Below, in pieces: positions 1 to 27,145 of a stretch of 64,000 nucleotides of DNA. Numbering within the stretch: the first letter of the stretch is position 1; the number at the start of each line of letters is the position of its first letter. The translations under genes and the position numbers were made by a program. This DNA comes from Bacillota bacterium. GTDB lineage: Bacteria; Bacillota_I; Bacilli_A; RF39; UBA660. Where the stretch lies: positions 66,724 through 130,723 of the forward strand of contig SVAH01000001.1 in the NCBI GenBank assembly GCA_015059485.1. Direction: 5' to 3'. The notes under the pieces were generated by a model that saw only the letters and a program-made list of their open reading frames with translations, was not told where the DNA came from and searched no databases.

Positions 1-465
1 TTTACAAAAAGAAATAATATTTATATATTTGATGAAACAGAACCAGATAGATTTAGAAATCTTAATATTGATTTGATATATGTTAGTGGTGGTAATACTT
101 TTGCAACTTTGGATAAAATGAGAAAATGTGGTTTTGATAAAGATATAATTAGTTATATAAAAAATGGTGTAATATATATTGGAGGTTCTTGTGGTGCTCA
201 CATAGCAAGTAAAAATATCAAACACTTGGAAAAGTTAGATGACAATTATTTAAATATTAAAGATTATGATGCTTTAGGATTATTTGACGGAATAATAATA
301 CCTCACTATAATGAAGAAGAATATAATCCAAAGTTGAGAAAGCAAATATATGATAATTTATTAATTGAAAATAAATATAAAGTATATGCTCTAACAAATG
401 ATGATTCATTAGTTATTATTGATGATACAATTATTGAATATAAAGGAGGTAATACTCATGAATGA
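1..465 (+). CDS. Peptidase S51 (PepE-like, class I glutamine amidotransferase fold), 5'-truncated by the window edge; cargo of cassette 0
   Basis: Frame is open from base 1. Motifs IYVSGGNTF, YIGGSCGA (nucleophile Ser) and IIPHY are typical of the S51 family. Confidence 0.8.
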   Translation, partial: FTKRNNIYIFDETEPDRFRNLNIDLIYVSGGNTFATLDKMRKCGFDKDIISYIKNGVIYIGGSCGAHIASKNIKHLEKLDDNYLNIKDYDALGLFDGIIIPHYNEEEYNPKLRKQIYDNLLIENKYKVYALTNDDSLVIIDDTIIEYKGGNTHE

Positions 466-469
466 AAAT

Positions 470-500
470 AAAACAAATATAAACTGGTTGGTGTTGATTT
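470..500. repeat. Recombination junction J1 (att-like quasi-palindrome, central TG at 485-486)
   Basis: AAAACAAATATAAAC-TG-GTTGGTGTTGATTT; the left half encodes KTNINW, as in rbgA 42410-42427. Confidence 0.85.
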
Positions 501-655
501 AGTATAACTATTCATGAAACTCCTATAAAATAAGGGAAAACTAATATTTAATAATTACATATTTTAATAAATAATTACTAAAAAATATTAAAAATAACAA
601 AGTATTTAATACTTGGTGTTTACAGTCAAACTTTTAATAAAAAGAGGTGACAACA

Positions 656-1612
656 ATGAAAGAAATGTTAAAATTATTGAATAATTATTTAGTTATAATA
701 AATAGTTCTGTTGAAATATGGCTAGTTTTCAGTTCTTTAGATGAAGATGTATCTATAAAAGATTCTGATTTATTTGAATATTATTCTGATTTTAAACATA
801 TTGATTTGGAACATATTTCAACACATTTAATAAATGCGTGTTTACCCAGTGACAAAATTGAAAGGTTAATTAATGCTTTAAAAATTTTAAAAGAGACTTA
901 TATTAAATATGGTGTTAATAATCTAGATGAGTTATCTTCAAAAATATTAAATGAGTGGAATAATTCTAAGGATTATAGTGATGAATTAATTAAAGATATT
1001 TTATTAATAGAATGCCGCAGTGGATGGGATAAATTACCTAAATCTAATACGTCCTTATTAAAAATATACAAAGATATGGTTGATGGTGATATGATTGTTA
1101 ACCCTAATATTCCAGTTGGTACTTCATCTGAAAGATTATATACAATGTTACCTGATGATGCATCATGTTATAGATATAATTTAAAAGTTATATCTAATCC
1201 AATGATAGATTGGAGTATATATAGAAATGGTAGAAATCCTTTAGAACAGTATTGCGCATTATATAATAATAGTAAAAATGAAGAAGAAAGAAAATATTAT
1301 CATGATTTAATAATAACAGCTATTTTTAGTTCATGTAGTTTATTTAATAATAAATTTGCATGGCATACTAAAGCTCATAAAACTGAAGAGATGATTAATT
1401 ATTATTTATTAGTAGAAAAAAATGAAATAAATAGTAGGCATCATTCTTTAAATGATATTAGTTTTATTAGTGAAATACATGAATTATTATTAAATGATGA
1501 ATTGTTTAATCATCAATTAGAATTATATACTGAAAAGAATGATGATGCTGAAGAAGTAATTAAGGAATTAAAATTATCAAGAGAAAGTGTACAACATAAA
1601 GTGTATTTATAA
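656..1612 (+). CDS. Hypothetical protein (~318 aa), cargo of cassette 1
   Basis: ORF 647-1612; RBS AGAGGTGA favours ATG at 656; no recognisable motif. Confidence 0.75.
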   Translation: MKEMLKLLNNYLVIINSSVEIWLVFSSLDEDVSIKDSDLFEYYSDFKHIDLEHISTHLINACLPSDKIERLINALKILKETYIKYGVNNLDELSSKILNEWNNSKDYSDELIKDILLIECRSGWDKLPKSNTSLLKIYKDMVDGDMIVNPNIPVGTSSERLYTMLPDDASCYRYNLKVISNPMIDWSIYRNGRNPLEQYCALYNNSKNEEERKYYHDLIITAIFSSCSLFNNKFAWHTKAHKTEEMINYYLLVEKNEINSRHHSLNDISFISEIHELLLNDELFNHQLELYTEKNDDAEEVIKELKLSRESVQHKVYL

Positions 1613-1616
1613 GATT

Positions 1617-1779
1617 GCCATATGACCAGGTAACTCTTATGGTTAACTTGGTATTGGATTAGTCTAACTACGATAAATGACTTAAAAATGGACGAAATAG
1701 TAATAAATTTCGTCTTTTTTATGCTATAATTGAATAGAAATGGAGTGATTCCTATGGATAATAAAACTAATATTAACTG
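1617..1779 (+). repeat. Promoter-type right arm, copy 1 (near-identical to 3541-3702)
   Basis: Imperfect inverted repeat, terminator GACGAAAT..ATTTCGTC-T6, extended -10 TGCTATAAT, RBS GGAGTGA, ATG GAT AAT AAA ACT AAT ATT AAC TG. Confidence 0.85.
1691..1720 (+). terminator. Intrinsic terminator in the cassette right arm
   Basis: gacgaaat-agtaataa-atttcgtc followed by a T-run. Confidence 0.65.
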
Positions 1780-1793
1780 GTTGATATTGATTT
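1763..1793. repeat. Recombination junction J2 (central TG at 1778-1779)
   Basis: AAAACTAATATTAAC-TG-GTTGATATTGATTT (preceded by T). Confidence 0.85.
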
Positions 1794-2422
1794 AGTCTGA
1801 GTTTCATTCAAACTCCTATAAAATAAGAAAAAAACAAATATATGCTTGTTACATAATATAATAAGAATATAAAAAATAATGATAAAAATAACTGAAAAAG
1901 TATCAAAAGTAGCATAGTATTTGATACTTGGTATTGACGGTTAAACTATTAAAAACGAGGTGAATGATTATGATTTTAGATGGAGCAGATATAGGATTAG
2001 GTAAAGTAGTTATAACAGACTCACATGCAACAATTAATAATGTTGAAATACCAATAAAATGTGTAGATATATATAGTGAAGATCATATTTATCGTTTCAC
2101 ATTTTGGACTCAACAAGAATATGAAAAATATAATGATTTAGAATTGAATAAAAAAACTAATATTTTAGATCTTATAGATGACTACGATATTGATTTTGGT
2201 ACTAAAGAATATGGTACTATTAATTCAAGAGAAAATACTGAGATGTATTTTACTAGAATAGATACTGATAAATATATTTTAACTGCAGAGATTAAAAATT
2301 TTGAAAATTGTGTGCTTGGAAATATGAAAAATCATAAGAATTTAAAATTAGAAGCTATTATAGATTTTAATGATATAAAAGGAGTTGATCCAAATGAATG
2401 AAAATAAAACTAATATCAATTG
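1780..2422 (+). mobile_element. Single-gene cassette 2 (643 bp)
   Basis: Bounded by J2 and J3; conserved left arm; the ORF stop overlaps the rbgA-like start (ATGAATGA). Confidence 0.75.
1964..2401 (+). CDS. Hypothetical protein (~145 aa), cargo of cassette 2
   Basis: ORF with GAGGTGA RBS (start may be 1970); no family recognised. Confidence 0.75.
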   Translation: MIMILDGADIGLGKVVITDSHATINNVEIPIKCVDIYSEDHIYRFTFWTQQEYEKYNDLELNKKTNILDLIDDYDIDFGTKEYGTINSRENTEMYFTRIDTDKYILTAEIKNFENCVLGNMKNHKNLKLEAIIDFNDIKGVDPNE

Positions 2423-2436
2423 GTTGATATTGATTT
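2406..2436. repeat. Recombination junction J3 (central TG at 2421-2422)
   Basis: AAAACTAATATCAAT-TG-GTTGATATTGATTT. Confidence 0.85.
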
Positions 2437-2601
2437 AGTCTAGCCATTCATTAAACTCCTATAAAATAAGGAAAAATTAATATTTAGTAATTACATATTT
2501 TAATAAATAATTACTAAAAAGTATAAAGAATAGATAAAAAAACTCCAAAAATACCATAGTATTTGATACTTGGTATTGACGGTTAATCTAATATAAAAGA
2601 G

Positions 2602-3540
2602 GTGATTGTTTTGAATTTAATAGATACATTAAATACAAGTTATGAATATGTTTGTGATAACTCCAGAAATGTAAAAATAAATTATGATAAAATTGATGAT
2701 TTAATTGATCAGATTAATAACTCAAAGGTTGATTATTGGTTAGATTCAAATCCATATGGTTTAATGGATATGGATGTAGAAGAAATAATTAATTTCTTAT
2801 TCATATATCATGCAATAGGAGATTATTGCTTTTGGGGAGATCCTAAATGGGAAGTAAAAACAGATCTAGGTGTTATGGATGGGTCTTATGCAATAATGTA
2901 CTTAATACTAAATAGATTTAAATCAAATAATAATTTTGAAATTAGTTTTGATGAATTTAAAGAATTATTAAAAGGAAATGTAACAATTCCATTGTTAAAA
3001 GATAGATATCAAAATTTATTAGAAATGAATAGATTTCTTAAATCTAAAAATAAGTCATTCTATGAATTAATTAAAGAATTAAACATTGATAGTGAATTAT
3101 TTGAATTTATAGTTAATAATTTAGATTATTTTAAAGATATATCTAATTATGGAGGGAAAGAAATACTATTTTATAAAAGAGCTCAATTATTAACTTCTGA
3201 TATTCTACATGTTAGAGAGAAGAAAGAAAATATTGAAGTAGATTATTCTCATTTAATTGGTTGTGCTGATTATAAAATACCTCAAGTTATGAGATGCTAT
3301 GGTATGTTAGAATTCAGTGATAGTTTAGGAGATAAAGTTGATTCTAAAATAGAATTAAAAGAAGGTACTGAAGAAGAAATAGAAATAAGAGCAAATACTT
3401 TAAAAGTAATAAACTATATATATGAAAGATTAGATAAAAAATATTCTCGCATGGATATAAATGATTTTATATGGTTACTAGGTCAAAATAAATCACAAAT
3501 GACTAAATCATATCATAGAACATTAACAAAACATTATTAA
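2602..3540 (+). CDS. Queuosine salvage protein (QNG1/DUF2419-like queuosine-nucleotide N-glycosylase)
   Basis: Motifs YCFW, FYKRAQLLTSD, ADYKIPQVMR, EIEIRA, D.FIW and YHRT match the Q_salvage family; the true start may be TTG 2611. Confidence 0.8.
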   Translation: MIVLNLIDTLNTSYEYVCDNSRNVKINYDKIDDLIDQINNSKVDYWLDSNPYGLMDMDVEEIINFLFIYHAIGDYCFWGDPKWEVKTDLGVMDGSYAIMYLILNRFKSNNNFEISFDEFKELLKGNVTIPLLKDRYQNLLEMNRFLKSKNKSFYELIKELNIDSELFEFIVNNLDYFKDISNYGGKEILFYKRAQLLTSDILHVREKKENIEVDYSHLIGCADYKIPQVMRCYGMLEFSDSLGDKVDSKIELKEGTEEEIEIRANTLKVINYIYERLDKKYSRMDINDFIWLLGQNKSQMTKSYHRTLTKHY

Positions 3541-3702
3541 GCCATATGACCAGGTAACTATTATGGTTAACTTGGTATTGGTTTAATCAAACACGATAAA
3601 TGATATAAAAATGGCCGAAATTGTAATAAATTTCGTCTTTTTTATGCTATAATTGAATAGAAATGGAGTGATTCCTATGGATAATAAAACTAATATTAAC
3701 TG
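3541..3702 (+). repeat. Promoter-type right arm, copy 2
   Basis: Near-identical to 1617-1779. Confidence 0.85.
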
Positions 3703-3720
3703 TTCGATAGGAAATTAGGC
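3686..3720. repeat. Junction J4 = attL of the ICE (central TG at 3701-3702)
   Basis: AAAACTAATATTAAC-TG-TTCGATAGGAAATTAG; similarity to rbgA ends exactly after TG. Confidence 0.8.
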
Positions 3721-3889
3721 AACATTTTTTGAAAACTCCCGTAAAATAAGGGTAAAACAGCCATCGAGTAATTACATTTTTTTAACAAAAGTTGTAAAAA
3801 ATAGCAAAAAATACCCAAAAATACCTCAAAAATGGCATAGCATTTAAGGGGTGGTGTTCGGACGCAACACTTTAAAAAAGCAATTAATA

Positions 3890-3915
3890 TCAGATAGTTT
3901 TATCTGATTTTTTTT
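3890..3915 (+). terminator. Terminator-like hairpin just inside the ICE left end
   Basis: atcagata-gttt-tatctgat followed by T7. Confidence 0.55.
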
Positions 3916-3939
3916 ATGCAAAAATATAGGAGGGTTTTT

Positions 3940-4818
3940 ATGAAAGAGGAAGTTGTTGAATTAAATGTTAAAGACATATCAGATTTTCCAAAACATCCAT
4001 TTAAAATAAATAATGATTTAAATTATGAAGAACTTAAAAATAGTATTATTGAAAGTGGTGTTCTCGTTCCTACAATTGTGAGAAAGAAAGAAGATGGAAA
4101 ATACGAAATGTTATCTGGACATAGAAGAAAGAAAATATGTGAAGAACAGGGTATAAAAAAAATACCATGCATTGTTAAAAATGTTTCTGATGAAGAAGCT
4201 ATCATATTAATGGTAGATTCAAATCTTCAAAGAGATAAAATATTACCTAGTGAAAAAGCACTAGCTTATAAAATGAAATATGAAGCAATAAAACATCAAG
4301 GTAAAACTTCCGACCCATTGGGTTCGAAGTTATCAATCGAAGATATTGTAAAAGACACAAATGATAGTGCAACTCAAATAAGAAGATATATAAGGTTAAA
4401 TTATTTAATTCCAGAATTATTACAGTTAGTTGATGATACAGTTTTAAAAGATAAACGTGCTACTTTAACAATGGGATTAAGACCTGCTGTAGAATTATCT
4501 TATTTATCTAAAGATGATCAAGAACTTGTTTATGAAGAAATAACATATGAAGATTTAACTCCAAGTCATGTTCAAGCAAAAAGAATAAGAGAACTTGGAG
4601 AAAAAGGCGAATTAGACTCAGATATACTTGAGTCTATTTTTTTGGAACAAAAACCTAATCAAGCTAAAAGATTATCTTTTAATGAAGAGAGAATAAGAAA
4701 AGTATTACCTAAAGATATTAAGGATTATAAGATTGAAGATTTTATAATAAAAGCAATTGAGAGTTATTCTAAGACACTCTCCAATGAAAGGGGTGATTCA
4801 TATGATTTAGATATTTAG
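3940..4818 (+). CDS. ParB/RepB/Spo0J family partition protein
   Basis: HPFK, YEMLSGHRR, MVDSNLQR and IRRYIRL motifs; RBS AGGAGG before ATG 3940. Confidence 0.85.
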   Translation: MKEEVVELNVKDISDFPKHPFKINNDLNYEELKNSIIESGVLVPTIVRKKEDGKYEMLSGHRRKKICEEQGIKKIPCIVKNVSDEEAIILMVDSNLQRDKILPSEKALAYKMKYEAIKHQGKTSDPLGSKLSIEDIVKDTNDSATQIRRYIRLNYLIPELLQLVDDTVLKDKRATLTMGLRPAVELSYLSKDDQELVYEEITYEDLTPSHVQAKRIRELGEKGELDSDILESIFLEQKPNQAKRLSFNEERIRKVLPKDIKDYKIEDFIIKAIESYSKTLSNERGDSYDLDI

Positions 4819-4873
4819 CACCCTACAATATTTATTTATTTTCTATTATTATTTTAGTAAGAGGTGAAGAAGA

Positions 4874-5497
4874 ATGAAAAAAGTTATAATTAGCTTTATC
4901 ATTTTGTTTCTTATTGCTTCAGGATTCTTAACTTATAAATATGTATTTATGAGAAATAAAGATGAGAAAAAGCCAGTAGTTAATACTACAGTTATTGAAT
5001 CAAAAGTTGATTCAGAAGAAATGGAGGAAGAAGAAAATGAACCTATTACAGAAAATAATAAAACTAATAATGATATTGTTAAAAACGACAGCATTAATGA
5101 CAATAATGCTAATTCGAACAATATGGAGAGCAATAATGTTCGTAACTCTAATGTCGTAAAAGAAAATTCAATAACTAATAATGTGAAAAAAGAAGAGCCA
5201 AAACAGGAATCTGCTCCAGTTCAACAACCAGTAGTACAACCTGAACCAGAACCACCAAAACATGAACCAACAGCATGGGAAAGCTTAGGAATAAGTGAAT
5301 ATGATTATTATCATTCACCAATGTGGAGTTGGGCTAGAGTTGATTATAAAATTGAAGATTATGGAACATTTGATGCTACACATCAAGCTTGTATTGATGC
5401 TGGATATCAATTAGAAGATATAATTAGTTTTTCTTGTACAAACATTAATAGTTATTCGGGTGCTTATTTAGGGGATATGCTCAGAATAAAAAAATAA
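4874..5497 (+). CDS. Membrane-anchored surface protein with N/E/P-rich linker
   Basis: N-terminal TM segment, low-complexity stalk, small C-terminal domain with two Cys. Confidence 0.7.
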   Translation: MKKVIISFIILFLIASGFLTYKYVFMRNKDEKKPVVNTTVIESKVDSEEMEEEENEPITENNKTNNDIVKNDSINDNNANSNNMESNNVRNSNVVKENSITNNVKKEEPKQESAPVQQPVVQPEPEPPKHEPTAWESLGISEYDYYHSPMWSWARVDYKIEDYGTFDATHQACIDAGYQLEDIISFSCTNINSYSGAYLGDMLRIKK

Positions 5498-5513
5498 TGA
5501 AAGGAAAAATGAT

Positions 5514-8297
5514 ATGAAATCAAAATTATTTAAGTATGCTATGATGAGCATGCTTTTTATTTTGTCTATTTTTGGCATAACAGAAGTACATGCTGAACAA
5601 TACACTGGACAAGCAATCTGGCCTAGTGAATATATTAGTAATATCTATATTAAAAAAGATAGAAATGATGGTTATTCAAAATGGCAACAAGCAAGATTTA
5701 TTAGAAGAAGTGAAGATAATAAATTCGTTTATTGTTTACAACCATATACTGATATAGATAATAACTTACCTTATTATGATGTAATAAGAGAAGACTATGA
5801 AAGAGTATTAGGGTTTAGTGAAGCACAATGGGAAAGAATATCTTTACTAGCTTATTATGGATATCAATATGACCAAAATGGATATAATCATAATGATCAA
5901 AAATGGTATGCTATTACTCAAGTTATGATTTGGAGAACAACAAATCCTGAATCAAATATCTATTTTACTGATACTTTAAATGGTAATTATACATCTAAAT
6001 TTGATGGTGAAATAGCTGAACTTGAAAGCTTAGTTGCAAATCATTATAAAAGGCCACAATTACAAAGTGGAGTTGTTGTACCAATTGGAAGTACAACTGA
6101 AATGAATGATACTAACGGTGTATTAAGTAATTTTAAAATTACTTCTACAGATAAAGTATCAGCAACTATTAATGGAAATACTTTATCAGTAACTGCAAAT
6201 AGTATTGGTGAAGGATCTATTACTTTTGAAAAGAAAGCTACTAAGTATGAAATACCACCAATTGTTTATTTTAGTAATCATTCACAAAATGTATTTAGAG
6301 TTGGTAATTTTGACCCTGTATTAAGTAAATTTACTTTAAAGGTTATAGGTGGAAGAGTAACACCAACTAAAGTTGATGTTGAAACAAAAACAAATACTCC
6401 TCAAGGTGAAGCTAAATTAGGTGGAGCTGTATATGGTATTTATAAAGTTGATGGAACTAGAGTTGGGTCTGTAACTACTAAAGATGATGGAACAAATACA
6501 TCAGATTATTTACCTGAACTTGGTAGATTCTATTTATTAGAAGAACAACCATCAGAAGGTTATTTATTAGATAGTAATAAATACTATTTTGAAATAACAG
6601 AGAATAATTTAAATCCTACTGTGCAAGTATTTGAGCAAGTAATCAAATTAGATTTTGAATTTACTAAAGTGTATGCTAGTGCTGAAACTCAAATAATGGA
6701 ACCAGAAGTAGGTATTAAATTTGGAATTTATAATAATAAGAATGAACTTGTAAAAGAAATAACTACAGATTCACAAGGTGTATTTAGATTTACTTTACCA
6801 TATGGTACTTATACTGTTAAACAATTAACAACAACTAAAGGTCATGAAAAAATTGACGACTTTAATGTTGAAGTAAAAACTACAGGAGAAGTAGTTAAAA
6901 AAGTTATTTCAAATGCTCCAATTACTGCCAAGTTAAGAGTTGTTAAAATTGATTCTGAAACTAAGGAAGTAATAAAGAGAAGTAATATTAAATTTAAAAT
7001 ATTTGATGTTAAAAACAATGAATATGTATGTCAAACAATTACATATCCAACTAAAGAAACTATCTGTGTTTGGGAAACAGACGAAGATGGTGAATTTACA
7101 ACAGCTTATCCTTTAATGACTGGAACTTATAGACTTGAAGAAGTTGATCAAGTAATTGATGGCTATTTATGGAATAGTCAATCTCATGAATTTACAATTG
7201 ATGAAGATTCTAATTTAAGAACTGACTCAGAGTATGGAATAATATTCGATACTGATTTTGAAAACACTAGAGTAAAAGGTGAAATCAAAATTGAAAAAAC
7301 TGGAGAGGTTGCTGAACTTACTGAAAATGGATTTGAATTTAAAAATCAACCATTAGAAGGAGTTAAATTTGGTTTATATGCTAAAGAAGATATAGTATGG
7401 AATGGTAATACAATTTATACAAAAGATTCTTTAGTAACAGAAAAACTTACTGATAGTGAAGGTAAAATAGTATTTGATGAATTATATCTTGGTAAGTATT
7501 ATGTAAAAGAAATTGAAACATTAGATAATTATGTTTTAGATGAAAATACATATGAAGCTGAACTAGTATATAAAGATCAATATACACCAACTATCTTCTA
7601 TTCAGAAGCTTTATTAAATGTATTAAAAACTGGTAAACTAGAATTTACTAAAACTGATATGTCTGAATCTAAAACTCTTCCAAATACACTAATCGAAATT
7701 TATACAGAAAATGATGAACTAGTATTTAGTGGAAGAACTGATGAAGAAGGTAAAATTGTTATTGAAAGACTTCCTCAAGGAAAGTATTATATTATTGAAA
7801 AGGAAGCACCAGAAGGATACAAACTTAATGAAGAAAAAATGCCATTTGAAATTAAAGAAAATGGTGAAGTAATTAAATCAACTATGAAAGATGAAGACAT
7901 AACTGGAACACTTGAATTTACAAAATTAGATTTTTCAAATGATAATCCACTTTCAAACACTTTAATTGAAATATATAATGCTGATACAGATGAATTAGTA
8001 TTCTCTGGAAGAACTGATGATAATGGAACAATTACTATAGAAAAATTAAAATATGGTAAATATTACATTTTAGAGAAAGAAGCACCAGAAGGATATGAAT
8101 TAAATCCTGAAAGAATGTATTTTGAAATCAAAGAAGATGGAGAAATTGTTAAATCTGTAATGAAAGATAAACAAATAGTTAAAGTACCTAATACTGAAGA
8201 AAATGATTATAAAGAATTATTATTTAGTGGAATTACTTTACTAGTTTGTGGAGCAGGTGTAATTATTTATGGAATCAAAAATAAAAAGAAAAAATAA
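5514..8297 (+). CDS. Cell-wall-anchored adhesin with Cys-Gln thioester (TED) domain and SpaA/Cna-B-type repeats
   Basis: Signal peptide; VYCLQP and YAITQVMIW (TQxxIW) motifs; repeated EKEAPEGY modules; VPNTE sorting motif followed by TM and basic tail. Confidence 0.8.
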   Translation: MKSKLFKYAMMSMLFILSIFGITEVHAEQYTGQAIWPSEYISNIYIKKDRNDGYSKWQQARFIRRSEDNKFVYCLQPYTDIDNNLPYYDVIREDYERVLGFSEAQWERISLLAYYGYQYDQNGYNHNDQKWYAITQVMIWRTTNPESNIYFTDTLNGNYTSKFDGEIAELESLVANHYKRPQLQSGVVVPIGSTTEMNDTNGVLSNFKITSTDKVSATINGNTLSVTANSIGEGSITFEKKATKYEIPPIVYFSNHSQNVFRVGNFDPVLSKFTLKVIGGRVTPTKVDVETKTNTPQGEAKLGGAVYGIYKVDGTRVGSVTTKDDGTNTSDYLPELGRFYLLEEQPSEGYLLDSNKYYFEITENNLNPTVQVFEQVIKLDFEFTKVYASAETQIMEPEVGIKFGIYNNKNELVKEITTDSQGVFRFTLPYGTYTVKQLTTTKGHEKIDDFNVEVKTTGEVVKKVISNAPITAKLRVVKIDSETKEVIKRSNIKFKIFDVKNNEYVCQTITYPTKETICVWETDEDGEFTTAYPLMTGTYRLEEVDQVIDGYLWNSQSHEFTIDEDSNLRTDSEYGIIFDTDFENTRVKGEIKIEKTGEVAELTENGFEFKNQPLEGVKFGLYAKEDIVWNGNTIYTKDSLVTEKLTDSEGKIVFDELYLGKYYVKEIETLDNYVLDENTYEAELVYKDQYTPTIFYSEALLNVLKTGKLEFTKTDMSESKTLPNTLIEIYTENDELVFSGRTDEEGKIVIERLPQGKYYIIEKEAPEGYKLNEEKMPFEIKENGEVIKSTMKDEDITGTLEFTKLDFSNDNPLSNTLIEIYNADTDELVFSGRTDDNGTITIEKLKYGKYYILEKEAPEGYELNPERMYFEIKEDGEIVKSVMKDKQIVKVPNTEENDYKELLFSGITLLVCGAGVIIYGIKNKKKK

Positions 8298-8880
8298 GAG
8301 CTGGTTAATTATAATCGGCTCTTTAATCTTTCTTAGTGGTGTTGGATTAATAACATATGATTATTTATCTAATAGCAAGGTAGATAAAAAAGAAACTGAA
8401 TTGTTAGAAGAATTCTATGAAATAGAAGAGGAAATTGAATCTATAGAAGAACCTCAAGTAGTAGAAGAAGTAAAAGAACAAATTAAAGTTAATTATATTG
8501 CTGTACTTAAAATTCCTAAAATTGGTTTAGAAAGAGGTTTAGTAGATCCAAATAATTATCTTAATAATGTTAATTATAATTTAGAATGGTTAGATGGCTC
8601 ATCTATGCCAGATGAAATAAATGGTAATGTAATAATTGCTGGTCACTCTGGTAGTGCAAGAATATCTTATTTTAGAAAATTGGATAGATTAGAAATAGGT
8701 GATGAAGCTTCTATCATCTATAATGGTAAAACCTATAATTATAAAGTAGTAGATATTTATGATGTTGAAAAAACTGGTAAAGCAGAAATAGTTAAAGAAA
8801 AAAATACTACAACTTTAACATTAATTACATGTAGGCATAATACTAATAGACAGATAGTTGTCATATTTAAACAATTCTAA
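8269..8880 (+). CDS. Sortase
   Basis: N-terminal TM, IIAGHS, TLITC..R catalytic motifs. Confidence 0.9.
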   Translation: MESKIKRKNKSWLIIIGSLIFLSGVGLITYDYLSNSKVDKKETELLEEFYEIEEEIESIEEPQVVEEVKEQIKVNYIAVLKIPKIGLERGLVDPNNYLNNVNYNLEWLDGSSMPDEINGNVIIAGHSGSARISYFRKLDRLEIGDEASIIYNGKTYNYKVVDIYDVEKTGKAEIVKEKNTTTLTLITCRHNTNRQIVVIFKQF

Positions 8881-8936
8881 TTTTGCACAATATTTATTTA
8901 TTTTTATAATGTTATAATCTTTAATGAGGTGGTTTT

Positions 8937-9398
8937 ATGCAACGATTCTTTGATTATTCAAAAGGTAAAGTAGATAAAAAGAATAAAGATAGAATTGTCT
9001 TTATAAATAGAATGGCTATGCTTATGCAAGAATTCGAAAGTTCTAGTCCTGAAATAAATGAATTAGTTAATTGGTTATTTTGTAAATCTGAAGGAGTTCC
9101 TTATCTTGATTCTGATATGCAATGTGTATGTAATATAAAATTAGAACCACTTAAATGGCTAGATAAAAAAAGAGTAATTAAAGAGGTATGGGAAAATGAT
9201 GTTCATTTATATTCTTATGCATTGATGTTGCATGATTTAAACTATTGGACAAATAATGATGTTCTAAACGAAATTATTACAGAAATGTATTTTAGATTAG
9301 ATTATTTAATACATCCTTATGAAGAAGAACAACACGATAGAGATTTAGAAGATATAAGATATTTTATAGAATTTGATTATGTAGATGAGGAGCAATAG
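8937..9398 (+). CDS. Hypothetical protein
   Basis: ORF with GAGGTGG RBS. Confidence 0.7.
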   Translation: MQRFFDYSKGKVDKKNKDRIVFINRMAMLMQEFESSSPEINELVNWLFCKSEGVPYLDSDMQCVCNIKLEPLKWLDKKRVIKEVWENDVHLYSYALMLHDLNYWTNNDVLNEIITEMYFRLDYLIHPYEEEQHDRDLEDIRYFIEFDYVDEEQ

Positions 9399-9426
9399 CT
9401 CTTTTTATTTTGAAAGGTGGTTTATT

Positions 9427-10227
9427 GTGAATGAAAACATAAGAGACTTCGAGATACATGGTATCACAGGATATACTGTAATGAGTAATTATCATTTACG
9501 AGATCCTAATTTATCATTTAAAGCAAAGGGACTTCTTTCTATGATGTTATCAATGCCTAAAGATTGGGATTATTCTATAAGTGGTTTAGAAAAGATATCT
9601 AATGAGGGTAAATATGCAGTTAGATCTACTCTAGAAGAATTAAAAAAGGCAGAATATGTGAATATAAGCCGATTTAGAGATGAAAAAGGATTATTTAGGT
9701 ATAAATATACCGTTTACTATTTACCTTATCCTATGTGGTTAAAAATGCATAATTATCCAGATATCAATTTTCCGTATATGGATAATCCGAATACGGATAA
9801 CTGCACACAAATAAAGAATAATAATAAAAAAGATAAAATAGATAAAACACCAGACGAAATTGGTGAGGAAATTAAACATAATATTTTTACTAAAGAATTA
9901 ATTAAAAGGAACTATATTTCAGAAGATGATAGTAGTTCTTTTTTATTTGATCAATTATTTGAAGAATTATTAAAGCAAGGGAATAACTATAAGGATTTAT
10001 TAATTATGACTAACTATGTTGTATCTAGAATTAAAGAAAGAAATTTTAGAGATGAAAATGGTAATGAAATTAAAAATAAATATGGTTATTTTAAAAATGC
10101 CATAATTGGAAATATCAGAAGATTTGAAAACCTTGAACATTTATATGAAGATGGAGAATTTAATTGGTTAGATGATGATTCAGATTATGATTGGTTAAAT
10201 GATAATGAGGAGGATTATGAATTATGA
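9427..10227 (+). CDS. Phage-replisome-organizer-like replication initiator (N-terminal HTH)
   Basis: GYTVMSNYHLRDPNLSFKAKGLLSMMLS..DWDYS motif; RBS AAAGGTGG suggests GTG start at 9427; internal short repeats 9770-9803. Confidence 0.7.
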   Translation: MNENIRDFEIHGITGYTVMSNYHLRDPNLSFKAKGLLSMMLSMPKDWDYSISGLEKISNEGKYAVRSTLEELKKAEYVNISRFRDEKGLFRYKYTVYYLPYPMWLKMHNYPDINFPYMDNPNTDNCTQIKNNNKKDKIDKTPDEIGEEIKHNIFTKELIKRNYISEDDSSSFLFDQLFEELLKQGNNYKDLLIMTNYVVSRIKERNFRDENGNEIKNKYGYFKNAIIGNIRRFENLEHLYEDGEFNWLDDDSDYDWLNDNEEDYEL

Positions 10228-10445
10228 AAAATATAGAAGAAATTAAACTGATGGAAATTGAAGCTTTAAGTGATTTTGAAGATCATATAGGAATAGTTTT
10301 ATCTGATATGGATATTTTTAGAGAATATCTAGATAAAAAAGAATTAAAAAAATTTAATAAATGTTATGACTATTTAGATAATCTTTGGGAAAAGGTAGAA
10401 AATATCATAGCAAAAATAAGTGATGCTGATGAAAGAGGTAAATAA
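10224..10445 (+). CDS. Hypothetical protein
   Basis: ATGA overlap with the upstream gene. Confidence 0.65.
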   Translation: MKNIEEIKLMEIEALSDFEDHIGIVLSDMDIFREYLDKKELKKFNKCYDYLDNLWEKVENIIAKISDADERGK

Positions 10446-10446
10446 T

Positions 10447-10731
10447 ATGGAAGACAAATTTACTTATGTAGGTAGAATGTATGATTGGTATGAAGTAAAA
10501 GAAGATTATTTAAGAGTTTTATTTCAAGTATATGATAAAGAAACTAAATCATTCTACTTTTATGAGTTACAAGTTTATGAACCTGAATTAATATCTAAGT
10601 TTATAAATTTAAAACCAAAACAAGTAATTGGTGTAGAAGGTCATTTTGAGGAACTTATAAGTCATCCAGATAGAGGACTTTCTCATATTGAATTAGAACA
10701 TGTAGTAGATAAAATCATTACTTCTGAATAG
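10447..10731 (+). CDS. Hypothetical protein (possible OB-fold)
   Basis: RBS AGAGGT before ATG 10447; FTYVGR and VIGVEG resemble SSB-like strands. Confidence 0.6.
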   Translation: MEDKFTYVGRMYDWYEVKEDYLRVLFQVYDKETKSFYFYELQVYEPELISKFINLKPKQVIGVEGHFEELISHPDRGLSHIELEHVVDKIITSE

Positions 10732-10845
10732 AAGTATTTTTTTTTATTGAAAGGTGGTGGTTCTATAGAGTAAAAAAATTCAGGAATAGTCAACTGAATT
10801 AAATAAAATGGCTAAATATTTGATTTATAGAGGGAGGAAATTTAA

Positions 10846-11217
10846 ATGTTGAATCAAATTGTTATTGTTGGAAGACTAACTAGTAATCCAGAAGTTGTAA
10901 AATCTGAAAACGGAGGTAGTGATAGATCACAAATAACTCTAGCTGTACCTAGAAGTTATAAAAATGCCGATGGAGCATATGATACTGATTTTGTTGATTG
11001 TGTTCTTTGGGGTGGTGTTGCTGAAAATACAGCAGAATACTGTAAAAAAGGCGACATAGTAGGAGTTAAAGGTAGAATCCAAACTAACACTTACGAAACT
11101 GAAGAAGGAGAAAAGAAAAAATCAACTCAAATTGTAGCTGAAAAAGTTACTTTTCTTTCATCAAAAAAAGAAAAAGAAGACGACATTGAAAAATCAGACG
11201 ATGAATTAGAGATGTAG
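10846..11217 (+). CDS. ssb: Single-stranded DNA-binding protein
   Basis: MLNQIVIVGRLT, TDFVDCVLW and VGVKGRIQT motifs. Confidence 0.9.
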   Translation: MLNQIVIVGRLTSNPEVVKSENGGSDRSQITLAVPRSYKNADGAYDTDFVDCVLWGGVAENTAEYCKKGDIVGVKGRIQTNTYETEEGEKKKSTQIVAEKVTFLSSKKEKEDDIEKSDDELEM

Positions 11218-11340
11218 TCATGTACGAGAATAAAGCAAAGAAAAAGAGTTAAATCGCCAGCCAGCAAAATAACTCTAGTGATATTATATCACTTCTTTGC
11301 TTTTTCTTTTTTATATTTTTACAAAAGAAAGGAAAAACAT

Positions 11341-11598
11341 ATGAATTTATTTTATGAATTAATCAGCGATGATGCTGGAAGAAAATTAAAAAAAGAAAGA
11401 CAAGCATGGGGAATGTCTAGAAGAAGATTAGCAAAATTAGTAAAGACAGATAAAGAAACAATTGAATATATCGAAAAAGGATATGTTTGTATGTTGGATT
11501 CTGAATTACTTAGAAGAATAAGTGAAACGTTAGATGTAAACATGTTTGATTTCTTTAAAAGAAAATTAACATTTAAAGAAATGTTAGCAATAGTATAA
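11341..11598 (+). CDS. XRE-family HTH protein
   Basis: LKKERQAWGMSRRRLAKLV..TIEYIEKG; RBS AAAGGA before ATG 11341. Confidence 0.8.
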   Translation: MNLFYELISDDAGRKLKKERQAWGMSRRRLAKLVKTDKETIEYIEKGYVCMLDSELLRRISETLDVNMFDFFKRKLTFKEMLAIV

Positions 11599-11610
11599 GG
11601 AGGAATATTT

Positions 11611-11889
11611 ATGGGTAATTATTTACAAATGTTAAAAATCGAACATCTTGAAGGTGGAGGATACAATGTAGATTCAATTATTAAAGCAATTCAAACATTT
11701 TCTACTTGGGCTTTAAGAGTTGGTATTGCAGCTGCAGGTGTTTCACTAATTGTTGGATTTATTTTGTATGCTGTTGTTGATGTAGATAGAAAAGCTCAAG
11801 TTAAACAAAGGATAATTCAAACTATGTTTGGTATAGTAGGAATTATTTTAGCAATATCAATTGTAAATCTAATCATTGATTTATTCTAG
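11611..11889 (+). CDS. VirB2/TrbC-like pilin
   Basis: 92 aa with two hydrophobic helices, first gene of the T4SS block. Confidence 0.6.
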   Translation: MGNYLQMLKIEHLEGGGYNVDSIIKAIQTFSTWALRVGIAAAGVSLIVGFILYAVVDVDRKAQVKQRIIQTMFGIVGIILAISIVNLIIDLF

Positions 11890-11901
11890 GAGGTGATTTG
11901 A

Positions 11902-13314
11902 ATGTTATTAAAAGCATTAGATTTATTAAGAACTCTTGGATGGGCATTAGTACATTTTATTTATAATCTAATTGATTCATTATTTGATATTTTAAAAGGA
12001 TTAAATGCTTTTGATATAATCAATTCTGTTTCTGGAGATAATAACTTTATTACATTCCAAAAAGGTGTAATAGCAATTGCAGTTACACTTTTAGGATTAT
12101 TTGCAATAAGTAGATTTGCTAAAAAGATAATAGATCCTGATGAGGGATTAAGTTCTAGTGGAATAGTAAAGGAAATTATTAAATGTGGTGTGCTTATAAT
12201 TATGAGTACATTTTTATTTGTTCAAGCATCGACTTTTTCAATTAAACTTGCTGGCTTTACTTCTAATATATTCACAAATAATAATTTAACTATTTCAGAT
12301 TCAATGCTTACAATGTTTATTGATTATTCTGAAGGTTATAAAGAATGTGATGACTTTAAAGGTGAAGATATTGCAAAGAATGTTTCAAATGGAAACTTCA
12401 ATGCGAAAGAAATGTATAACGATAAATATGTGACTTCTAAGAGATTTATCTTACCAGATAAAAAAGATTATAAGTATAAGATTAATTGGATAATGGCTGT
12501 AATAGTTGGAGGATTTTTCTTATATTCATTATTCTTCTGTGGAATGATGTTAGCAAGAAGACAAATAGAATTTTTATTCTTATTTGTAATTAGTCCAATT
12601 ATATTTGCTACTTCAATTGGAAATAAAGAAAGAAGAAGTGCTGTAGTACAACAACTTGTTTCATTAATGTTACAAGGTGCAGTCATAATGTTAATTATTT
12701 CTTTAACAGCTATTGTAATGGGTCAAATAAATAGTACAACTTTCTTCAATAATACTTTTAAAGATATTGTAATTAAATCAATTATGTATATTGGTTGTGG
12801 TTCATTCTTATTAACTGGTTCTCAAGTAGTCAATAAGTTTATTGGTGGAAATGTATCAGCTAATAGTGGTAGAGAACAATTAATGGCTATGATGGGATTT
12901 GGTCAAGCAATGGGAGGAATAGCTTCAACAGCTGGACTTGGAGTTGCAGGAGCAGGTCTTATGGGAGCTGGAGCTTTAGCAAAAGGTGGAGATGTAGTTG
13001 GATCTAAAGTTGGTAAAGCTGGAAATTCTGCTTTAGGAAAAGTAGGACAAGCAGTATCTAACTTTGGTTCTAAGATGGGAGGTAAAGATTATACCTCAGG
13101 AGGTATTGGAAGTAATCTTAAAATGATGGGGGATTATTTACAAGCATCTTCAATGTCTAAGAGTGGAAATGCAGGAAATCAAAGATCTAGTAGATTATCT
13201 AGATTTGGATCTGGAATGATGAATGCTGGAAAAGAATCAATGGCTCAAGCTATGTCTAATGTAATGCCATCAAGAAGTATGTATAGAAGAAGATACAGAG
13301 GGAGAGATGATTAA
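11902..13314 (+). CDS. VirB6-like polytopic conjugation membrane protein
   Basis: Multiple TM segments, RQIEFLFLFVISP motif, Gly-rich C-terminus. Confidence 0.7.
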   Translation: MLLKALDLLRTLGWALVHFIYNLIDSLFDILKGLNAFDIINSVSGDNNFITFQKGVIAIAVTLLGLFAISRFAKKIIDPDEGLSSSGIVKEIIKCGVLIIMSTFLFVQASTFSIKLAGFTSNIFTNNNLTISDSMLTMFIDYSEGYKECDDFKGEDIAKNVSNGNFNAKEMYNDKYVTSKRFILPDKKDYKYKINWIMAVIVGGFFLYSLFFCGMMLARRQIEFLFLFVISPIIFATSIGNKERRSAVVQQLVSLMLQGAVIMLIISLTAIVMGQINSTTFFNNTFKDIVIKSIMYIGCGSFLLTGSQVVNKFIGGNVSANSGREQLMAMMGFGQAMGGIASTAGLGVAGAGLMGAGALAKGGDVVGSKVGKAGNSALGKVGQAVSNFGSKMGGKDYTSGGIGSNLKMMGDYLQASSMSKSGNAGNQRSSRLSRFGSGMMNAGKESMAQAMSNVMPSRSMYRRRYRGRDD

Positions 13315-13625
13315 TGTATATAACAGTACCAAGTATTAAAAAGACTCTAGGAAAATATATAGAGATGAAAGATTTATACATAGGTCTTCCTATGCTATTT
13401 TCATTTTTACTATTATTTTCATTCTCGAGTCATAAATTATTTTCATTATTGTATTTAACAATTTGTGTTTTTCTTATGTTACCAGTTAAGGTGTCAAAGA
13501 AGAATAGAATGTATAAAGTTGTAGCTCTTTTCTTTAGATATATAACTAGATGTAAAGAGTTTGCTTATAAAAGAAATGGAGATGAGGTAGATTGGAAAGA
13601 AAAACTAAAGATGAAAAAAATCTAA
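13314..13625 (+). CDS. VirB3/PrgI-like small membrane protein
   Basis: Two TM helices immediately upstream of virB4. Confidence 0.55.
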   Translation: MYITVPSIKKTLGKYIEMKDLYIGLPMLFSFLLLFSFSSHKLFSLLYLTICVFLMLPVKVSKKNRMYKVVALFFRYITRCKEFAYKRNGDEVDWKEKLKMKKI

Positions 13626-16054
13626 AAAAAGCAAAAAAGATTGATTCCAAGACAAATAGAAAATATTCATCTAAAGGTCAAATGAAAAGAAGAATTAAAA
13701 ATTCTAAAACAGTTACCAATGTTAAAGAAATTGGTGATGATGGATTAATCTATTTAAAGTCTGGAGAAGTTGCTACATTAATTGAAGTCAAAGCTATCGA
13801 TTTGTCTCTAACAAGTAATCATGAAAAGAATCTTTTCTTTTCTATGCTAAAAGCATTATATCAGGTACCTAATTTGAATTTAAAATGTTATAAGTTGAAT
13901 GAAAAATTAAACTTAAATGCTAATAAAGTTAGTTTAGATAATAAGATAGAAAAATTTCAAGATGATGAAGGTAAGAAATTATTATTAGAGGAATCAAGAA
14001 ATTTAATTGATGATCTAGAAGAGAAAAACTTTACTGTATCAAGTAAATACTTTTGGGTATTAATAGCTAAAGATACAGCAGTATTAAATAAACAGTTAGA
14101 TGAAATAGAAGATATAACTTTAAATATAGTTCCAAGAATTTATATTGAAAGTGTAACTAATAAACTAGAAATATATAAATTTTTATCTAATTTATATTTA
14201 ACATCTAATTCACTAGATGAATTAGTATGGAGTGATTTACCAAGTTTGGTGAGTCCAATGAATATGTCTGAAAGAACAGATAGAATGAAATTTGATGATA
14301 AGGAATTTCAAATTTTAACTGTAAAAAATGTTCCACCATTTGTTAGCGAATTATTTTTTGAAGATATATTCAATTATCCAGATGTTAGAGCTTCAATAGG
14401 AATACAAGAATGTATCACTCAAGAAGAATTAATAAGATGGGTAAATTCACAATATCAGTTCTTATTAACTGATAGAAATACTACTAAAAAATTAAGCGAT
14501 GCTACAGAGTTAGATACTCAAAAAGAAAACTTTCAAGCTTTAATGCAAGATATTAAAAATGGTGATGAAAAGATAAAAGAAGTGTCACTTATTTTAATAG
14601 TAGAGGGAGATAAAAAACATAGAGAAGAAGTAATAAGAGATTTAAAAAGAATAGCTGATTCATATCAAATTAAATTAGATGTTCCTAGATTAAGACAAAT
14701 GGAAGCATGGCAAAGTTATGATTTATCAACTAAGACTTTTGAAGATTATTGCTTTTATCTACCAACACTAACATTAAGTGCTGGATTCCCATTTACTAAA
14801 ACTTATTTTAATGATTCAAATGGTTATATGTTTGGTGTAGATATTCATACATCTTTACCAATATTCTTTGATCCATTTGTTTTAAATAATTCTAGAACTT
14901 CTCATAACATGGCAATTATATCTTCAACAGGTGGAGGTAAATCTTATACTATGAAAAAGATGATTGTTAATGAATATGGTAGAGGAACTAAAATATTTAT
15001 ATTTGATGCTGAAAATGAATACAAAAGAATCGTTGAAGCTAATAAAGGAGAATATATAGATCTTTATTCAAAAACTGGTGGAATTATAAATCCATTACAA
15101 ATAAGATTTATTCCATCAGATGATGAAAATCATGATACTAAAGAAACAGATTGTCCACTAGCTAAACACTTAGGATTCTTAGAAGCATTCTTTAAAACAG
15201 CATTTGAAAGTATAACAGAAAAGGAACTTGTAATGTTACTTGCTATAGTTGAAAAACTATATAACAAAAAAGGTATATTTAAGAATACATCTATAAATAC
15301 ACTTCAAAATATGCAACCTGAAGAATTTCCTATATTCTCTGAATTATATGAATTCTTACCAGAATATAAGAAAGATGTAGATAGTAAAGAAAAAGAAAAG
15401 ATAATTGAACAATTAGATATTCTTTTATCCAGATTCTTAACTGGAACAGATTCATATTTATTTGATGGACATACTAATATAGATTTATCCAATGATTTAA
15501 TTGCATTTAACTTACAAGAACTTTTATATAGTGGTAATCAAAGATTAATTAATACTCAAACATTAAATCTATTAACTTATTTAAATAATAGTATTGTTGC
15601 TAATAAAATTAATAACGATAAAGTTAAATTAGACGATAGGAAGCATGTAATGATTATAGCTGATGAATTTCACTTATTCATTGATGAAAACAATTTTGAA
15701 GTATTAAGAAACTTTGGACAACTAGCTAGAAGAATTAGAAAGTATTCTGGTTCACTTGTAGTTGCGACTCAATCAGTTAAGGACTTTGTAGGTAGTCAAT
15801 CAATATTAAGACATTCAACAGCTATATTTAATAACTGTCAATATCAGATGATAGGAATGCTTAAGGAAGATGATTTACTTGCATATCTAGAATTATTTAA
15901 ACAAAATCCTTTAACAGATACTCAAAAGAATTTCTTAATGAGTGCAAGAAGAGGAGAATTCTTACTTAATATAGATTCTAAAAATAGATTAAGAATTTGG
16001 ATTAGAGCAACTGAACTTGAAAGAGAAATGATGGGAGAGGGTGATTCAAAATGA
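13592..16054 (+). CDS. virB4: VirB4-family T4SS ATPase
   Basis: Walker A STGGGKS, INPL, IIADEFH, ARRIRKY and ATQ motifs. Confidence 0.9.
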   Translation: MERKTKDEKNLKKAKKIDSKTNRKYSSKGQMKRRIKNSKTVTNVKEIGDDGLIYLKSGEVATLIEVKAIDLSLTSNHEKNLFFSMLKALYQVPNLNLKCYKLNEKLNLNANKVSLDNKIEKFQDDEGKKLLLEESRNLIDDLEEKNFTVSSKYFWVLIAKDTAVLNKQLDEIEDITLNIVPRIYIESVTNKLEIYKFLSNLYLTSNSLDELVWSDLPSLVSPMNMSERTDRMKFDDKEFQILTVKNVPPFVSELFFEDIFNYPDVRASIGIQECITQEELIRWVNSQYQFLLTDRNTTKKLSDATELDTQKENFQALMQDIKNGDEKIKEVSLILIVEGDKKHREEVIRDLKRIADSYQIKLDVPRLRQMEAWQSYDLSTKTFEDYCFYLPTLTLSAGFPFTKTYFNDSNGYMFGVDIHTSLPIFFDPFVLNNSRTSHNMAIISSTGGGKSYTMKKMIVNEYGRGTKIFIFDAENEYKRIVEANKGEYIDLYSKTGGIINPLQIRFIPSDDENHDTKETDCPLAKHLGFLEAFFKTAFESITEKELVMLLAIVEKLYNKKGIFKNTSINTLQNMQPEEFPIFSELYEFLPEYKKDVDSKEKEKIIEQLDILLSRFLTGTDSYLFDGHTNIDLSNDLIAFNLQELLYSGNQRLINTQTLNLLTYLNNSIVANKINNDKVKLDDRKHVMIIADEFHLFIDENNFEVLRNFGQLARRIRKYSGSLVVATQSVKDFVGSQSILRHSTAIFNNCQYQMIGMLKEDDLLAYLELFKQNPLTDTQKNFLMSARRGEFLLNIDSKNRLRIWIRATELEREMMGEGDSK

Positions 16055-16335
16055 TAGAAGAATTATCCACTAAAGTAACCGATTTTTACTATGACTATGA
16101 TCCATATGAATTTAAGGATAATTATGAAAACTATAATGAAGGTTTAGAGGCAACACAAGAAGTGTTGTCTTCTAAATCTGAAACAAAAAAACTTATATCT
16201 GATTTAGAACAAATTAATGATGATTTGTATGGAGATAACGATCCAATAATAAAAGAGTTTTATGATAGAAGTTATAGTTTGATAAATGATTTAAATGAAT
16301 ATCAAAAAACATTAAAAGAAGATTATGAATTATGA
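16051..16335 (+). CDS. Hypothetical acidic protein
   Basis: Translationally coupled ORF. Confidence 0.65.
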   Translation: MIEELSTKVTDFYYDYDPYEFKDNYENYNEGLEATQEVLSSKSETKKLISDLEQINDDLYGDNDPIIKEFYDRSYSLINDLNEYQKTLKEDYEL

Positions 16336-17258: not shown

Positions 17259-17494
17259 TTAAGACCATAAAATATAGTTATAAAATAAGGAATTATTTAA
17301 TCCTTAAGACCATAAATATGGTTGAATTTTGCAAGTGCAAAATAAGTTTGATATCACACAATTTCTAGATTTTATCTAGGAATAAATAGTGTTGTGATAT
17401 CAATCTCTTATGCTCTTAAATTATTTGCCAAAATAATTATATATTTTATGGTCTGAATTGAACCATAGTATGTACATATAAGGAGGGATAAGTT
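17259..17494. other. Putative oriT
   Basis: Intergenic region upstream of RHH and relaxase genes; GACCATA repeats; IR AGACCATAAAATAT (17262-17275 / 17441-17454); IR TTGATATCACA (17348-17358 / 17393-17403). Confidence 0.55.
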
Positions 17495-18062: not shown

Positions 18063-18064
18063 TT

Positions 18065-20276: not shown

Positions 20277-20285
20277 AGGTATATT

Positions 20286-27128: not shown

Positions 27129-27145
27129 ATAAAAGAAAGGAATGA

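Follow-up and report, generated by a model that had tools for sequence, protein, structure and literature searches.

How can an essential gene go on being expressed once mobile DNA has settled, time after time, in its 5' end? This question is raised by the rbgA locus of a Bacillota bacterium (GTDB lineage Bacteria; Bacillota_I; Bacilli_A; RF39; UBA660; assembly GCA_015059485.1), from which we analysed a stretch of 64,000 nucleotides, called the window throughout (contig SVAH01000001.1, positions 66,724 to 130,723 of the forward strand; window position 1 is position 66724 of this contig, here C4, in the source genome, here G000). An earlier note on this DNA had proposed that the cassettes upstream of rbgA follow two alternative designs for restoring its expression. 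Having compared the locus with its relatives, we consider a serine-recombinase insertion hotspot probable here; its rbgA-proximal end would be window 441-3702, and its units carry two builds of a portable rbgA 5' end.

According to this reading, recombinase-less, single-gene cassettes and a conjugative element would have inserted successively at one attachment site, the dyad of which would be centred on the TG of a Trp codon about ten codons into rbgA. Each insertion would sever the gene from its promoter, ribosome-binding site and first codons and, because these native parts are removed, every unit would have to bring a portable rbgA 5' end as its right end, which would double as the left half-site of the recombinase. 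The compact build (~46 nt) would begin at or inside the last codons of the cargo and lack a terminator, with rbgA or the next cassette being read as a distal gene of a transcript begun upstream, most likely in a ~150-nt leader within the left end. In the insulated build (110-165 nt), a hairpin with a T-run would halt transcription of the cargo and would be fused directly to an extended -10 promoter (TGnTAnAAT) placed 23-32 nt 5' of the ATG, mirroring the terminator-promoter layout in front of unmodified rbgA. We infer, moreover, that new units enter next to rbgA.

Cassettes stacked at the 5' end of rbgA

A shared junction core, AAAACnAAyATnAAyTG, occurs at four junctions in the first part of the window (487, 1780, 2423 and 3702), and a fifth junction at 42427 is the right end of the conjugative element, from which rbgA proper begins (tatccaggccatatg, encoding YPGHM). 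At least 17 recombinase-less cassettes, 431-1,872 bp in length, form an array whose rbgA-proximal end is window 441-3702, and the 38.7-kb conjugative element follows them. The array reaches 11 kb upstream of the window, where contig positions 56026-66723 (1026-11723 of locus L061) hold 13 more cassettes and the 5' part of a fourteenth. Its 18 junctions before the element (G000:C4:56026-70426) lie at 56026, 56547, 56978, 57716, 58481, 59006, 59641, 60396, 61052, 61844, 62692, 63470, ~64478, 66350, 67210, 68503, 69146 and 70426. The 17 recombinase-less units and the element are thus delimited by 19 junction copies, which are direct repeats of the end of the target gene, and the motif stands above chance, since the source genome contains 16 forward occurrences and none of the reversed motif. 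Every unit ends on the right in a portable rbgA 5' end, comprising a ribosome-binding site, an ATG and 8-16 codons. Ahead of the leftmost junction come a hairpin with its T-run, TGTTATAAT and MNENKTNINW, in an intergenic region beside a minus-strand gene; this border may represent either the original chromosome or a fossil end.

The gene downstream of all these units is rbgA (42377..43252, plus strand), which matches the YlqF equivalog TIGR03596 at 323 bits (cutoff 208), retains the WxPGHM start of the GTPase core, and aligns over residues 14-288 to residues 2-278 of Bacillus subtilis YlqF (PDB 1puj). Its first 17 codons come from the element, and host sequence takes over with the last base of the Trp codon (42427/42428). 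The earlier note had suggested that whichever unit abuts rbgA sets its N-terminus, and had pointed to the N-termini of relatives as the place to look; these termini do vary. Before the conserved Trp, five outgroup genomes carry tails of 4-5 residues (MATIHW, MKQIQW, MTVQW, MNIQW, MSIQW), and B. subtilis YlqF begins MTIQW, whereas the tails of 40 rbgA starts in the family span 4-32 residues, just one of them being short (MNINW, L022). Family tails include MNENKTNINW, MNNENKTNINW, MDNKTNINW and MNNEEKNLQKTNINW (L045), while recombinase-bearing elements each give RbgA a tail of their own (e.g. MSNTNENQSVAKTNINW, MNNTNENARLDKTVINW, MNNNETQGGLHKSVINW). The tail is replaced along with the unit: three pairs of loci from different genera show 100% identity over the 100 nt before the crossover point and 72-74% over the next 600 nt of rbgA, and in L034 and L056, where a long end directly abuts rbgA (MDNKTNINW), identity is 87% upstream of the crossover point and 71% in rbgA. 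The unit abutting rbgA is of the promoter type in 15 cases, compact in 15 and of another kind in 10 (n = 40). Long basic N-terminal extensions of 28-32 residues (type MDMYQKRK...) are found at L013, L016, L018, L026, L030 and L033, and were presumably written by another element family; at L013/L072, a serine recombinase gene ends just upstream.

The position of the crossover can be narrowed further. Scored over 130 junctions, the symmetry of the dyad is highest when it is centred on the Trp-codon TG, where 6.8 of 12 pairs are complementary (mean over all centres 3.74, standard deviation 1.21). The dyad is short, with ~9 bp on each side of the TG, as a double-strand site for a serine recombinase should be. 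The last base of the Trp codon tracks the right-hand partner, being G in most cassettes and rbgA, T at the left end of the element and C in one left-end family. We infer that TG is the candidate crossover dinucleotide.

Within the window, all four units lie on the plus strand. Cassette 0 (1..487) is the 3' part of the fourteenth unit from the left border, called k13 because numbering starts at 0. It had been described as a cassette, and is a genuine one, delimited by junctions on both sides (G000:C4:66351-67210) and carrying a 261-amino-acid peptidase S51; the possibility that it is the chromosomal neighbour of rbgA was ruled out by the further junctions upstream. Its end is compact (...KGGNTHE*), and the stop falls on bases +6..+8 of the decoy start, ATGAATGAAAAT (MNENKTNINW). 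Cassette 1 (k14, 488..1780, 1,293 bp) has a left end of 159 nt, a 321-amino-acid cargo (647-1612) with no Pfam family above threshold, and a long promoter end at 1617-1780. Cassette 2 (k15, 1781..2423, 643 bp) has a left end of 183 nt with a duplicated half-site and a 145-amino-acid cargo (1964-2401), and its compact end (...KGVDPNE*) overlaps the decoy start (MNENKTNINW). Cassette 3 (k16, 2424..3702, 1,279-1,280 bp) carries a queuosine-salvage protein (2602-3540; Pfam Q_salvage, 1.3e-36) and a long promoter end at 3541-3702. Over the whole array, the cargos comprise three GNAT acetyltransferases, a HAD hydrolase, an S-adenosylmethionine-dependent methyltransferase, an ADP-ribosylglycohydrolase, a helix-turn-helix regulator with a CAAX protease, the peptidase S51, a DUF3841 protein and the queuosine-salvage protein, and seven array proteins have no Pfam family above threshold. 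The three acetyltransferase cassettes lie upstream of the window, as does the one two-gene unit (helix-turn-helix regulator and CAAX protease), which ends in a third copy of the long promoter end.

Two builds of the portable end

The distance from the stop of the cargo to the decoy ATG is bimodal, both in a wide set of 130 junctions whose decoy start is intact and in a narrower set of 53 measured cassettes. Among the 130 junctions of the wide set, a TGnTAnAAT box lies 10-45 nt before the ATG in 35 of the 36 with a gap of at least 61 nt, in 3 of the 10 with an intermediate gap (-60 to -26) and in 8 of the 84 with a compact gap (-25 to +40), and both architectures recur across genera. The two end designs that the earlier note had recognised in four cassettes are therefore genuine and recurrent, and the difference between them is real: one build is an insulated end with a terminator and a promoter-like box, and the other is compact, without room for either. 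A compact end is ~46 nt long and reads (TA)AAGGAGTTGATnnnnATGAATGAAAATAAAACTAATATAAAYTG, with the stop of the cargo at most 25 nt from the ATG or slightly beyond it. Cassettes 0 and 2 do lack the long arm, as had been reported, and carry the AAAGGAG within their last codons.

The long arm itself was confirmed as described. Cassettes 1 and 3 end in ~165-bp copies that are 94% identical to each other, with the third copy lying just upstream of the window, and that contain, in this order, a hairpin with a T-run, TGCTATAAT, GGAGTGA and ATG GAT AAT AAA ACT AAT ATT AAC (MDNKTNIN). In cassette 1 (1617..1780, plus strand), the arm opens with an inverted rbgA B' half-site (GCCATATGACCAGG) and a left-end-like half-site, followed by the hairpin at 1690-1715 with its T-run, the TGCTATAAT box at 1722-1730, GGAGTGA and the ATG at 1755 (MDNKTNINW); in cassette 3, the same arm family places the box at 3645-3653 on the plus strand. 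The hairpins of the two arms fold with dG of -11.4 and -9.8 (z of -3.9 and -3.4). Eight copies of this 165-bp end, spread over 6 genomes, make up a single conserved family. Its proposed likeness to the right end of the element also stands: the rbgA-restoring end of the element (42328..42427, plus strand) has TGGTATAAT at 42328-42336, GGGAGTGA, the same GGAGTGATTxCTATG with its ATG at 42377, and MSNTNENQSVAKTNINW. Among long ends in general, the box most often lies 23 or 32 nt before the ATG, with a T-run immediately 5' of it in 17 of 35; hairpin sequences vary among end families, and the layout of hairpin, T-run, TGnTAnAAT box and ribosome-binding site is retained. An identical layout of hairpin, T-run and box precedes the short-tailed MNINW rbgA of L022.

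The motif CCATATG[AG]CCNGG occurs just four times in the 1.4-Mb source genome: the plus-strand copies belong to the three long ends (window 1617-1632 and 3541-3556; C4:66188), and the minus-strand copy to rbgA. Because it is confined to the long ends and rbgA, we conclude that the long end opens with an inverted copy of the rbgA-side, YPGHM-coding half-site, after which comes the left-end-like half-site. The inverted copy may be a relic of how the end arose, an additional binding site or a partner for inversion.

Could the rbgA-like starts be retained solely as a recombinase half-site, the ribosome-binding sites, ATGs and boxes being irrelevant to rbgA expression and the two designs being accidents of cargo joining? 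The last ~20 nt before the crossover point do form one arm of a dyad-symmetric site and hold the best-conserved bases, and some internal starts have decayed. The half-site of a large serine recombinase is, however, typically ~25 bp, and the ribosome-binding site and ATG lie outside it, at 30-45 nt from the crossover point, where they are still intact in 130-132 of ~154 true junctions among the matches listed. Since, in addition, the unit abutting rbgA supplies the sole available start for an essential gene, and the TGnTAnAAT box separates long gaps from compact ends so sharply, we regard this explanation as unlikely.

Movement and expression of the units

The exact motif AAAACNAAYATNAAYTGGTTG was found in 22 of 301 sampled genomes of the family, and its reversed control in none. 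From 20 fetched loci and the source genome, 60 cassettes were delimited, with a median size of 830 bp (at most 2 kb in 56 of the 60) and with the longest open reading frame (ORF) on the rbgA strand in all 60. These cassettes move horizontally as units: several of them keep 94-98% identity from end to end in different genera, where they have different neighbours. Unit k9 of the source genome is 97.8% identical over 849 nt to L042:4199-5047, and the order of k9 and k10 in L042 is the reverse of that in the source genome; cassette 3 is 95% identical over its full length (1,284 nt) to L045:7482-8764, from another genus. The cargo of cassette 2 was also sought beside this cassette-3 homologue in L045, with no BLAST match. 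Among the matches listed in a scan of one genome per species, the motif occurs mainly in assemblies of uncultured Bacilli and in those labelled Erysipelotrichaceae or Mycoplasmatota, from ruminant, rabbit and human guts, and ~28 of the matches listed are chance matches in unrelated taxa. At L106, L108, L132, L179, L223 and L240, some internal junctions are decayed, having lost the ribosome-binding site or changed ATG to ATA or ATT, which suggests that selection is relaxed on starts away from rbgA.

This recurrence also bears on whether the units are independently mobile at all, or are instead decayed remnants of larger elements, left as the array grew by insertion of full elements and internal deletion. 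Homology of the left ends of cassettes to that of the element, resemblance of the long end to its right end, and the lack of a recombinase in most array-bearing genomes would all fit such scars. We nevertheless find this account improbable, as single-gene units recur at near-identity across genera, next to new neighbours and in reversed order, each is of modest size with one co-oriented ORF, and what they carry is unrelated accessory genes rather than pieces of conjugation genes.

In the insertion-hotspot reading that we favour, a candidate enzyme for movement is at hand in the integrative and conjugative element (ICE) that follows cassette 3 (3703..42427, plus strand, 38.7 kb). Its genes encode a ParB-like protein, an SpaA/thioester adhesin, a VirB4-like ATPase, an M23 peptidase, a MobL relaxase, a VirD4-type coupling protein and a type I restriction-modification system, and the features that define an ICE are found together within the att-bounded DNA (3702-42427): T4SS-DNA_transf (6.6e-65), TraG P-loop/DUF87, MobL (6.6e-11) and two serine recombinases. 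These tandem large serine recombinases (39084..42322, plus strand; 566 and 522 amino acids) contain Resolvase, Recombinase, Zn_ribbon_recom and DUF4368 domains, and presumably act on the element and, in trans, on the cassettes, by analogy with CcrAB, which reportedly mobilises tandem SCC-like cassettes (PMC11470126). Relatives of the rbgA-adjacent recombinase (at least 53% identity) form tandem pairs in 11 of the 301 genomes. Among 12 fetched recombinase loci (one of them merely 39% identical), 10 end directly at rbgA, and each brings a TGnTATAAT box or ribosome-binding site of its own as well as an N-terminus peculiar to it. The domains, this adjacency to rbgA and the TG-centred dyad together identify a large-serine-recombinase element, for which catalysis is predicted. 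The array at L041 (3961-8877, genome G059) includes a 4.9-kb unit with a shorter serine recombinase (a 419-amino-acid open frame, 45% identical over residues 1-373) and other genes, which is an intermediate between a cassette and a full element.

Elsewhere in the element, window 27445-35878 holds the type I restriction-modification genes hsdR and hsdM, with two or three oppositely oriented hsdS genes around a tyrosine recombinase gene (33689-34654), an arrangement that looks like a phase-variable specificity shufflon. Two ~3.2-kb direct repeats (blocks 74-91% identical) at window 49537-54491 contain paralogous ORFs of 582 and 585 amino acids, with a 456-amino-acid ORF between them. No Rfam family matched within the window at gathering thresholds. 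Among 24 sequencing runs listed, two DNA runs contain 0.96-0.97 of the sampled words and the RNA runs only 0.06-0.17, which is no evidence on expression, habitat or polymorphism.

With respect to expression, the left ends of the cassettes are as relevant as the right. Long left ends (140-210 nt) have a ~22-nt half-site at the junction and a diverged second copy just before the ribosome-binding site of the cargo, the two lying ~150 nt apart and flanking a conserved leader (window 488-646, 1781-1963 and 2424-2601), and short left ends (35-52 nt) have a single copy. In a word-sharing test, 23 of 40 arms had an exact match of at least 7 nt between their own two copies, and the same was true of 138 of 1,270 cross-family pairs; a local-alignment test of the duplication was weak (self 8.9, cross-family 6.7; own copy best in 10 of 40). 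Some cargos are found both behind a leader and without one (G000:1549-1979 and L048:4403-4708; G000:2718-3482 and L053:5291-6212), and in such pairs identity begins at the second half-site copy. Leaders are homologous across families (CCTTATAAAATAAGG; ATCTTGCAT...TAAAAT). A structured RNA was considered and rejected, as the consensus fold of 35 leaders had an energy of 0.0 on both strands. Since five of the six compact-ended cassettes that abut rbgA have a long left end, the ~150-nt leader is the most likely candidate source of transcription read into rbgA or the next cassette.

Cargo reading frames in compact ends end in three ways: in one frame at the TAA at the T of TAAAGGAG (-14, 17 cases) or the TGA in GTTGAT (-5, 11 cases), in a second frame at the second TGA of ATGAATGA (+8, 11 cases), and in the rbgA frame at a stop of the cargo's own (-12 to -21). 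The overlap of stop and start that the earlier note saw in cassettes 0 and 2 is present, with the second TGA of ATGAATGA as the stop (+6 to +8 of the rbgA-type decoy start), but it measures 8 nt and is not a classical ATGA overlap. Moreover, the translational coupling deduced from it is not supported as a design, this overlap being one of three frame outcomes; it follows from the frame of the cargo alone, because the end itself supplies stops in two frames. That compact ends work by true coupling, with cargo termination inside ATGAATGA re-initiating rbgA and the overlap being selected, is very improbable, for although the 8-nt overlap is found in cassettes 0 and 2 and in 11 of the 130 wide-set junctions, it is a minority outcome (11 of the 84 compact ends plus a few read-throughs) that at ~13% is rarer than the one third expected of random frames, the other two frames stop at a TAA or TGA 5-21 nt before the ATG, and the consensus AAAGGAG permits direct initiation. 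As this strong AAAGGAG lies 9 nt 5' of the ATG, independent initiation on a read-through transcript would suffice, and we read the compact end as a putative operon-type read-through design, not a coupling device.

The further suggestion that arm promoters feed downstream cassettes, as Pc does in integrons, found no support in the order of units: a short, promoterless left end follows 2 of 13 promoter ends and 7 of 47 compact ends (Fisher p = 1.0).

Several observations weigh against the insertion-hotspot reading. Neither an excised circle nor an empty site was observed. A serine recombinase match (E <= 1e-80) is present in only 6 of the 22 genomes with the motif, and a close tandem pair in only 3, so that most arrays are without a cognate enzyme in the same (incomplete) assembly. 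About 14% of the true junctions among the matches listed have a decayed ribosome-binding site or ATG, and internal decoy starts are therefore not strictly maintained. Both the TGnTAnAAT boxes and the leaders are predicted to fire, in the case of the ends from motif and architecture; a generic sigma-70 scan, which requires a -35 box that the ends lack, is uninformative in such AT-rich DNA (30 sites against 40.4 expected), and in the candidate promoter of the leader 19 nt separate a TTGCAT-like from a TAAAAT-like box, a poor spacing for sigma-A. A more ambitious reading would make the locus a serine-recombinase gene-capture platform in an essential gene, with interchangeable leader and terminator-promoter modules that are gained, lost and perhaps inverted by the same recombinase, rewiring both cargo and RbgA; we put this forward tentatively, as possible but less than probable.

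Comparison with known systems

No description of serine-recombinase cassette arrays at rbgA was found in the literature searched, the coverage of which did not extend to subscription journals. One close parallel is with the staphylococcal cassette chromosome (SCC) and SCCmec islands of staphylococci, in which tandem recombinase-less SCC-like cassettes are reportedly mobilised by CcrAB (PMC11470126). The two systems share large serine recombinases, paired here too, a single fixed integration site at one end of a conserved gene related to translation, and tandem units that are bounded by copies of the target-gene end, in many cases lack a recombinase, and carry accessory cargo. They differ in that the units here are far smaller (one gene at the median size given above) and in that the target here is the 5' end of rbgA, at a Trp codon, whereas SCC occupies the 3' end of rlmH (orfX). 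Because the target is a 5' end, each unit here must restore a promoter, a ribosome-binding site, a start and an N-terminus, unlike SCC. The enzymes share the Resolvase, Recombinase and Zn_ribbon_recom architecture with Ccr but are not Ccr orthologues (NCBIfam CcrB 94.2 and 91.6 bits, cutoff 900; CcrA 69.1 and 56.4 bits, cutoff 700), and their hosts are uncultured small-genome Bacilli of animal guts.

The same target gene, at the same 5' end, is used by streptococcal ICEs with tyrosine integrases, where insertion reportedly leaves the RbgA N-terminus unmodified, and some streptococcal rbgA elements replace the upstream region including the promoter (PMC4701971). The present locus is distinguished by a serine recombinase pair, a rewritten N-terminus and the accumulation of recombinase-less cassettes. 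It illustrates how mobile DNA can lodge in the first codons of an essential gene and leave the host alive, by bringing along a start, a ribosome-binding site and a putative promoter, and how freely the N-terminal tail of RbgA can change (a range of 4-32 residues within one family).

Cis-mobilizable elements (CIMEs), found beside ICEs such as ICESt1 and ICESt3, are flanked by att sites, lack integrase and transfer genes, and lie in tandem with an ICE at the same site. They are described as deletion derivatives used by tyrosine integrases and number one or a few units, whereas up to 17 single-gene units are stacked here, shared between genera and with modular expression ends.

With integrons, which reportedly include ORF-less cassettes with promoter activity (PMC6557892), the array shares co-oriented, compact, mostly single-ORF cassettes, cargo stops at or inside the recombination site, some units with promoters (putative ones here) and similar types of cargo (GNAT acetyltransferases, a methyltransferase and unknowns). 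Here, by contrast, the site lies inside an essential gene and not beside an integrase gene; neither end of the array has a tyrosine recombinase such as IntI, the one tyrosine recombinase in the window (33689-34654) lying in the restriction-modification shufflon. No single Pc-like promoter was identified in the array, the promoter ends showing no preference for promoterless neighbours. Integron cassettes end in attC sites, imperfect palindromes that fold as single-strand hairpins; the junctions here have the short dyad of ~9 bp on each side of the TG. The ~46-nt compact and ~165-nt insulated ends offer natural parts with which to test how large serine recombinases stack cassettes at a specific site. 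If the ends work as proposed, this locus would represent integron-like gene capture by a different class of enzyme, anchored in an essential gene of a poorly known gut lineage.

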